From: Methanomassiliicoccaceae archaeon
GTDB lineage: Archaea > Thermoplasmatota > Thermoplasmata > Methanomassiliicoccales > UBA472
DNA: 64,000 bases
Assembly: GCA_963768775.1 (NCBI GenBank)
Contig: CAVYIY010000007.1
Coordinates: 51,832 to 115,831 of the forward strand
Direction of reading: 5' to 3'
The notes under the pieces are model-generated. The model saw only the letters and a list, made by a program, of their open reading frames with translations. It ran no database searches and was not told the DNA's origin. A program made the position numbers and the translations under genes. This document shows positions 42,359 to 42,748 of the stretch, one piece after another. The first letter of the stretch is position 1. Every line of letters begins with the position of its first letter.

Positions 42359-42631
42359 TTACCTGGGCTCCTTGGCGAGAGGCCCGACCAGACCCTCAAC
42401 ATGGCTAGCCAGCTCTTCGCTCTTGAAAAGATATATGCAACAGACTTTCCCGTCCTTCTCCCGGGTGACCAGGGCCAACTTGTCTCCTGGCTTGATCCCT
42501 GCCCGGGCCCTTACCTCCTTGGGCAGGACCATTTGGCCACGCTCATCGACCGAGATGATCGACTCCACCTTAAGCGGCTCCTCGACTGGCCTGCAATCGC
42601 ATTTGGCATTGTTCTCGCTCGATTTGGACAT
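42359..42631 (-). CDS. AbrB/SpoVT-domain protein with two cysteine pairs, first gene of the hgcAB unit
   Basis: Swapped-hairpin DNA-binding core VDERGQMVLPKEVRARAGIKPGDKLAL. Cys pairs at C-D-C (N-terminal tail) and V-C-C (after the core). Stop lies 8 nt before the hgcA ATG. Confidence 0.75.
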   Translation of the reverse strand: MSKSSENNAKCDCRPVEEPLKVESIISVDERGQMVLPKEVRARAGIKPGDKLALVTREKDGKVCCIYLFKSEELASHVEGLVGPLAKEPR

Positions 42632-42653
42632 AGGCCACCGTGAATTGGCTTTC

Positions 42654-42690
42654 TAGTATTAGTAATATTCAGTAAAATCAGAATAATCAG
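42654..42690 (-). promoter_or_regulatory. candidate promoter/operator of the abrB-like-hgcA-hgcB unit
   Basis: Only AT-rich stretch upstream of the unit. Minus strand reads ctgattattctgattttactgaatattactaatacta, i.e. a ctgatt direct repeat plus a TATA-like element 25-35 nt from the ATG. This suggests a near-leaderless mRNA. Confidence 0.4.
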
Positions 42691-42748
42691 AAGATGCATA
42701 TCCGAGAACAGAATGATGGCGCCAGTAATTGAGGGATGCTCGATCGGT

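Follow-up and report, generated by a model that had tools for sequence, protein, structure and literature searches.

The 64-kb stretch of DNA analysed here, hereafter the window, contains a small gene of the AbrB/SpoVT fold, hgcC, which lies on the minus strand at 42359..42631, starts with ATG, ends with TAA (42361-42359) and encodes a protein of 90 amino acids, MSKSSENNAKCDCRPVEEPLKVESIISVDERGQMVLPKEVRARAGIKPGDKLALVTREKDGKVCCIYLFKSEELASHVEGLVGPLAKEPR; the assignment is based on the open reading frame and on matches to PF04014, NF040962 and TIGR01439. The cysteines of the protein are residues 11, 13, 64 and 65, arranged as C11-x-C13 and C64-C65. On the same strand, exactly 8 nt (42358-42351) separate the hgcC stop codon from the ATG at 42350 of hgcA (41370..42350, minus strand), which was assigned by NF040863 and by comparison of its N-terminus and encodes the mercury methylation corrinoid protein, with 405.8 bits against a cut-off of 275 and with the cap-helix motif NVWCAAGK present. 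The third gene is the ferredoxin gene hgcB (41050..41391, minus strand; NF040864, 111 bits against a cut-off of 99), the real start of which is likely the GTG at 41373, giving a protein of 107 aa instead of the listed 113-aa ORF. The hgcA stop overlaps this GTG by 4 nt (GTGA, 41373-41370), and the 107-aa HgcB with its 4-nt overlap is also called in the close relatives L081 and L082. The overlap suggests translational coupling as well as the shorter hgcB. The three genes are thus tightly packed, with the 8-nt spacer between hgcC and hgcA and the GTGA overlap between hgcA and hgcB. A sequence-only reading of this locus had described a 90-aa AbrB ORF ending 8 nt before hgcA, two cysteine pairs (a CDC-type tail and a CC after the core) and a single AT-rich stretch upstream of hgcC; all of these were borne out by the ORF coordinates, the HMM matches and the spacing, by the positions of the cysteines and the conservation of both pairs in homologues, and by the base composition described below.

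Upstream of hgcC lie proA (43849-45138) and proB (42749-43852), both on the minus strand, with a spacer of 117 nt between proB and hgcC, and a GNAT acetyltransferase gene (40158-40943, minus strand) follows 106 nt after hgcB. The order proA-proB-hgcC-hgcA-hgcB-GNAT is identical on four JGI contigs with 91%-identical HgcC. The GNAT gene is kept after hgcB in the closest relatives (L081-L083), not across the wider family. Neither arsM nor a second copy of hgcC was found in the window.

HgcC matches the NCBIfam model NF040962, "HgcAB-associated protein HgcC" (near_HgcAB), with 112.4 bits over residues 20-88 (cut-off 70, E 6.7e-33), TIGR01439 with 42.3 bits (cut-off 28.3) and PF04014 (MazE_antitoxin) with 36.7 bits (4.2e-9, cut-off 24.7), the last being the sole match in a Pfam scan. 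The window gene is a member of this already catalogued family, which is known but uncharacterised. An "antitoxin-like" prlF/mazE/abrB gene directly upstream of hgcA was reported by Zhang et al. 2023 (PMC10349881) on 14 of 35 contigs with hgcAB; of 31 confirmed methylators, 8 had the gene, six of these being archaeal, and it was proposed as a putative archaeal hgcAB regulator. The HgcC of NF040962 and the "TA gene" of Zhang et al. belong to the same family as the window protein and occupy the same slot directly upstream of hgcA, but the cysteine signature, the linkage to arsM and the putative operator described below are mentioned in neither. In the searchable literature, neither the name HgcC nor experimental work on the family was found. 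The sequence-only reading, which knew of no characterised archaeal hgcAB regulator, needs correction in that the family already exists as NCBIfam HgcC and had already been proposed in 2023 as an archaeal regulator of hgcAB.

Relatives of HgcC in a large protein collection form 1689 clusters at E<=1e-3, the closest being 91% identical, and named members of the family include Methanomassiliicoccus luminyensis. At least 554 species-level genomes encode a relative, and the closest of these, at 89% identity, is a Methanomassiliicoccaceae MAG from a fen. Sequence identity across domains is 50-70%, and D29, R31, G32, Q33, P37, K38 and R41 are invariant in 112 homologues from Bacteria and Archaea. In an AlphaFold2 model (mean pLDDT 72.9; 86-90 over residues 21-70), the protein is predicted to consist of a disordered, cysteine-bearing N-terminal tail (residues 1-13) and a swapped-hairpin core of about residues 20-70, with C64-C65 placed inside the last β strand (residues 62-70). 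The top Foldseek matches of this model are SpoVT (2w1t), a Sulfolobus AbrB-like protein (5itm) and AbrB (1yfb), with probabilities of 0.99-1.00, TM scores of 0.4-0.7 and E-values of about 0.05, which are weak because the domain is short; MazE ranks below SpoVT and AbrB. A profile search of PDB sequences likewise returned the SpoVT N-domain (5e-5), archaeal AbrB-like proteins and AbrB, and no structure of HgcC itself. By these comparisons, the closest solved relatives are transcription factors (SpoVT, AbrB and Sulfolobus AbrB-like proteins) rather than MazE.

Among 121 aligned homologues, C64 is present in all and C65 in 120, the complete central CC being found in 120. A CC in the N-terminal tail is present in most of the 121 homologues, many of which carry a second CC just before the first strand (CCKVES), and many tails read CCxP or CCGP; in the clade of the window, the tail contains C-x-C instead of CC. 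For the proteins encoded at 80 genome loci and in the window, the central CC was found in 76 of 77 (one masked by N, and L029 reading HC), and at least two cysteines in the N-terminal tail were likewise found in 76 of 77. The number and spacing of the tail cysteines vary, and one hgcA-linked homologue, L076, has none. No selenocysteine was found at the HgcC cysteine positions among the 121 homologues. The central CC is essentially invariant and the cysteine-rich tail near-universal. Since C64 and C65 lie in a predicted β strand, their side chains should face opposite ways, which is awkward for chelating one metal ion; chelation of one ion by this pair would need fraying of the strand or a site formed across the dimer.

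The region upstream of hgcC has a GC content of 0.28 at 42640-42699, and all other 60-nt windows in 40900-43000 have at least 0.38. Within it, three direct CTGAW pentamers (42690-42686, 42681-42677 and 42672-42668) are arranged on a 9-bp lattice and form a putative operator, CTGATtattCTGATtttaCTGAA (42668..42690, minus strand), which ends 36 nt before the hgcC ATG. Besides one GC-rich chance match (0.63 expected), this array accounts for the only lattice matches in the 64 kb. Directly 3' of the array lies an AT-rich, TATA-like segment, tattactaatactag (42653..42667, minus strand), which is probably the archaeal TATA box region; in related archaeal loci, TATAAATA or CTAAATAGG is found at the same place relative to the repeats. 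A Shine-Dalgarno-like GGTGG element can be proposed from the sequence at 42635..42639 (minus strand), 3 nt upstream of the ATG. In the close relatives of the window the array is invariant, and the remaining spacer has diverged. A sigma-70 promoter scan of 40900-42900 returned nothing, as expected for an archaeon, and a candidate RNA element in the leader was rejected since no Rfam match was obtained over 40000-44000 at E<=1. A perfect 10-bp inverted repeat, ATGCTCGATC / GATCGAGCAT, with an 8-nt loop (42736-42763) straddles the proB stop just upstream of the hgcC promoter region; no T-run comes after it on the minus strand, and it may act as a hairpin or terminator at the 3' end of proB and thereby insulate hgcC. 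A fourth, degenerate repeat unit, CAGAATGAT, on the plus strand at 42709-42717, is 30 nt from the array, hence off the 9-bp lattice, and is probably due to chance.

The same element recurs upstream of homologous genes. In k-mer counts over the 150 nt upstream of 79 genes, AATCAGA occurred in 57 sequences and in none of the coding controls, and the conserved element proved to be the pentamer CTGAW in either orientation. Its mean number per 120 nt upstream is 3.2 over 78 loci, against an expectation of 0.62 (sd 0.09) in Markov-1 simulations and 0.59 in 3754 control windows, and at least three sites are present at 58 of the 78 loci, compared with 2.5% of the controls and 2.6% of AT-rich controls. 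Co-oriented sites are spaced by 9 nt (58 cases) or 18 nt (9), and opposed sites by 7 or 16 for CTGAW followed by WTCAG and by 11 or 20 for the reverse order, so that all spacings fall on one strict 9-bp lattice, which was found upstream of 73 of the 78 homologous genes. A TTGAC[AT] box is present at 52 bacterial loci, and relative to it the pentamers lie at about +18, +27-30, +36-41 and +45-49; the bacterial array is situated between the TTGACA -35 box and the RBS and overlaps the expected -10 zone in 40 of the 52. In Methanoregula, Methanoperedens and Methanomassiliicoccales, the array abuts a TATA-like box directly on its 5' side.

The partner genes were surveyed at the best 80 genome loci, obtained by a scan with the HgcC alignment, of at least 554 species-level genomes with a relative. 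Directly downstream on the same strand, hgcA and hgcB follow in 32 of the 80, and a gene of about 280 aa follows instead in 44; the latter is the arsenite methyltransferase gene arsM (NF008823, 347-362 bits against a cut-off of 263). Three of the remaining loci are cut by a contig end and one (L029) has neither partner, and the hgcC-family gene is the first in its unit in 76 of 77 evaluable loci. Carriers among these best 80 loci belong to Methanomassiliicoccales, Methanoregula, Methanoperedens, Desulfobacterota, Chloroflexota, Nitrospirota, Actinomycetota and others. Beyond arsM, hgcA and hgcB, no recurrent neighbour family was found at the genome loci, save for a local synteny of proA-proB that close relatives share; antisense ORFs that recur over hgcC were dismissed as artefacts of hgcC conservation. 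The arsM-linked AbrB proteins score 115-133 bits on NF040962, above the score of the window protein itself, and the name "HgcAB-associated" is accordingly too narrow: the NF040962 "equivalog" over-reaches, its label being given to genes that accompany arsM. In Candidatus Methanoperedens, for example, the "HgcAB-associated protein" (L085, L086, P0035; L008, L019, L023) is followed by an arsM-like SAM methyltransferase gene, and hgcA is absent within 3-4 kb. When the core of about 70 aa, which is too short for counting partner switches, is arranged in a neighbour-joining tree, the arsM- and hgcA-linked types interleave, and 65 of 77 proteins have a nearest neighbour with the same partner. A division into separate hgcA-type and arsM-type subfamilies was rejected because of this interleaving and because both types pass the NF040962 cut-off. 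No published description of an arsM linkage to an AbrB, antitoxin, SpoVT or looped-hinge helix gene was found in a literature search of incomplete coverage; to the extent that the literature could be searched, the linkage to arsM, the cysteine signature and the putative operator appear to be undescribed. Linkage to hgcA, the neighbourhood check suggested along with the sequence-only reading, is thus present at the 32 loci that head hgcAB, but the larger share heads arsM and bacteria are carriers too.

An independent set of loci was obtained by scanning metagenome contigs with an HgcA alignment, which gave 80 loci, 55 of them with at least 700 nt upstream. In 16 of the 55 (29%), hgcC lies directly upstream of hgcA, in agreement with Zhang et al. 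2023. Lattice pairs were found at 14 of the 16 hgcA loci with hgcC compared with 3 of the 39 without it, so that the repeat goes with hgcC rather than with hgcA. In the absence of hgcC, the slot upstream of hgcA is taken by arsM-like (5), ArsR-like (3), MarR-like (2) or unrelated genes.

Based on these observations, a possible mechanism was proposed in which HgcC is probably, though we say so with some reserve, an autoregulating AbrB-fold repressor that responds through its cysteines to a thiophilic metal(loid), either As(III) or Hg(II) or both. In this mechanism, HgcC would repress its own promoter and with it hgcA-hgcB, which are taken as co-transcribed. An oligomer of swapped-hairpin dimers may bind the three 9-bp-spaced CTGAW repeats at 42668-42690 and, because these abut the TATA-like box, bound HgcC would block the access of TBP/TFB. 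C11-x-C13 in the flexible tail and C64-C65 in the last strand of the DNA-binding barrel could then coordinate As(III) or Hg(II), or become oxidised, and either event could distort the fold, free the DNA and derepress the operon. Such a repressor fits best with the AbrB fold and its conserved DNA-facing residues, with a promoter array conserved across domains and with a first-gene position like that of ArsR-type regulators. The autoregulation anticipated by the sequence-only reading gains further weight from an array that lies on the gene's own core promoter at the 78 loci and in the window, from the association of the repeat with hgcC and not hgcA and from the tight packing, so that this part of the proposal is now well supported in silico. 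Several points weigh against repression by HgcC: a regulator would not usually be as conserved across domains as the 50-70% identity seen here, which could reflect a protein-protein interface, some other factor might in principle bind the CTGAW repeat, and an archaeal site just upstream of a TATA box can serve an activator too.

With respect to the signal, sensing of a metal or of thiol state appears to be strengthened by the invariant CC, the near-universal cysteine-rich tail and the linkage to two metal(loid) methyltransferases, while the variable number and spacing of the tail cysteines and the lack of any in L076 speak against it. The family is specific neither to Archaea nor to hgcAB. Among the best 80 loci, it heads arsM more often than hgcAB, which weakens a mercury-specific signal and makes an As(III)-type or general thiophile signal at least as likely, and bacterial carriers exist. 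In Pseudodesulfovibrio mercurii ND132, hgcAB is controlled by an arsenic-responsive ArsR-like regulator (Gionfriddo et al., 10.1101/2022.10.17.512643). Together with this case, the fact that the partner enzymes methylate As(III) and Hg(II) makes As(III) no less plausible than Hg(II) as the signal. With somewhat less than even confidence, the whole HgcC family could be regarded as a previously unrecognised AbrB-fold class of cysteine-based metal(loid) sensor that acts on a CTGAW operator with a 9-bp lattice and provides a joint signal for arsM and hgcAB in Bacteria and Archaea.

The proposed assembly resembles three known kinds of system. ArsR/SmtB proteins, including the ND132 regulator, are encoded at the same operon position as HgcC, first and co-oriented ahead of arsM or hgcAB; both are small and cysteine-bearing, derepression by thiolate-metal(loid) binding is presumed for both, and ArsR-like genes fill the hgcC slot in some hgcA loci without hgcC. 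ArsR/SmtB proteins are, however, winged-helix proteins, whereas HgcC has the AbrB swapped hairpin and no PF01022 match, and HgcC is at most a functional analogue, not a member. The swapped-hairpin N-domain is common to HgcC, AbrB, SpoVT, archaeal AbrB-like proteins (Sso7c4) and MraZ, and R41 of HgcC aligns with the DNA-contact residue R23 of AbrB. The mraZ gene likewise comes first in its operon, and its product binds several direct repeats in the promoter of that gene. Unlike HgcC, these proteins possess neither the invariant CC nor the cysteine-rich tail and have no link to metal(loid) methylation, and the 9-bp CTGAW lattice differs from the known operators of AbrB, SpoVT, Sso7c4 and MraZ. 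ArsD, encoded in arsenic operons, binds As(III)/Sb(III) through vicinal cysteine pairs and has historically been described both as a weak repressor and as a chaperone. In contrast to HgcC, its fold is thioredoxin-like and the enzyme that it serves is the ArsA ATPase instead of a methyltransferase, and the two share no sequence similarity.

In an alternative that we consider unlikely but worth weighing, and of which the sequence-only reading had raised a Hg(II)-handling version, HgcC is a metallochaperone or accessory protein that would bind Hg(II) or As(III) through its vicinal cysteines and hand it to HgcA/HgcB or to ArsM, perhaps besides binding DNA, as is known for ArsD. Its central CC and cysteine-rich tail resemble the N-terminal CC of ArsM, the C-terminal CC of HgcB and the N-terminal CC/CU extension of HgcA, the very high sequence conservation across domains would suit such a role, and the HgcA of the window has no cysteine-rich extension of its own. 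On the other hand, the array on its own promoter and the conserved AbrB DNA-contact positions require no chaperone role, and we know of no AbrB-fold metallochaperone. The tails that read CCxP or CCGP are close to the PCUGP motif of the N-terminal Cys/Sec extension of HgcA described by Haft and Gwadz (10.1101/2022.07.06.499078). The N-termini of HgcA were compared, among others at L007, L027, L065, L072, L079 and L080 and at L009, L013, L015, L022, L053, L069 and L078. In the window and in other Methanomassiliicoccales, HgcA starts without a Cys- or Sec-rich N-terminal extension; the HgcAs of Methanoregula have CC/CxC-rich extensions, and the deltaproteobacterial ones show an in-frame TGA in SCUPP/NCUPP, as Haft and Gwadz describe. 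A general rule by which HgcC replaces the extension was rejected, as it is true only for Methanomassiliicoccales (the window, L001-L003, L031, L063 and L076) and fails for the hgcC-adjoining HgcAs of Methanoregula, deltaproteobacteria (SCUPP), Nitrospirota and some actinobacteria, which keep CC- or CU-rich extensions; HgcC as a substitute for the extension thus fails in general.

Less probable still is a redox or Fe-S sensor, in which the 4-6 cysteines per monomer would ligate a cluster or form disulfides and the O2-sensitive enzymes would be expressed only under reducing conditions. Several cysteines per monomer of a dimeric fold and the named carriers in the 80 records, which belong largely to anaerobic lineages (methanogens, Methanoperedens, Syntrophaceae, Dehalococcoidia and Nitrospirota), are consistent with it, but a vicinal CC with variable tail cysteines is atypical as an Fe-S ligand set, and the exclusive pairing with two metal(loid) methyltransferases points to a substrate-type rather than a general redox signal. 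The label of KEGG, JGI and Pfam would make HgcC an orphan type II antitoxin (PrlF/MazE) functionally unrelated to hgcAB: the best Pfam name is that of MazE, JGI calls many homologues "antitoxin PrlF", and Zhang et al. 2023 treat the gene as a TA gene. No toxin gene lies beside hgcC in the window, where its neighbours are proB and hgcA, or downstream at any of the 77 evaluable loci, where arsM or hgcA follows with a single exception; the scores on the PrlF model NF007429 (16 bits against a cut-off of 125) and the MazE model NF050106 (19.2 bits against 65) are far below the cut-offs, and the closest solved structures are those of transcription factors. An antitoxin was rejected on the missing toxin partner and the sub-threshold family HMMs, and we regard it as highly improbable.

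Mercury biogeochemistry still has to explain what controls hgcAB expression and which purpose HgcAB serves. Transcript levels are a poor guide to methylmercury production, and the ArsR-like protein of one bacterium is, to our knowledge, the only regulator of hgcAB that has been put to the test. Both in our own sample and in that of Zhang et al. 2023, hgcC is instead present at about 30% of hgcA loci, including those of methanogens that are dominant in some rice paddies. The vague notion of an "antitoxin-like putative regulator" can now be replaced by a concrete and testable model of a family that also heads arsM, with an invariant cysteine pair and a defined putative operator, and from the side of the genomes this model independently strengthens the link that has been proposed between the methylation of arsenic and that of mercury. 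If HgcC proteins are indeed such a class of sensor, with one signal for arsM and hgcAB, hgcAB in these organisms would be part of an arsenic or soft-metal(loid) response and not of a mercury-specific one, and HgcC would be a fold-independent analogue of ArsR.

The one family member with neither arsM nor hgcA as its partner, L029 (505-783), in which HC replaces CC, still carries four copies of the pentamer upstream, and the gene after it encodes a 1024-aa FAD/Fe-S oxidoreductase (GlcD/LdhH-like; 1001-4075). One Syntrophaceae MAG (CAZEKS01) contains two paralogues, L035 and L078, which head arsM and hgcAB, respectively, under the same pentamer lattice, and this shared lattice suggests co-regulation of, or cross-talk between, arsenic and mercury methylation. 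Furthermore, arsM adjoins hgcAB in 9 of the 80 metagenome hgcA loci; at these loci (L093, L095, L096, L104, L116, L127, L130, L133 and L162), which have no hgcC, an arsM-like gene either precedes hgcA at a short distance or comes after hgcB and provides a direct physical tie between the two methylation systems.
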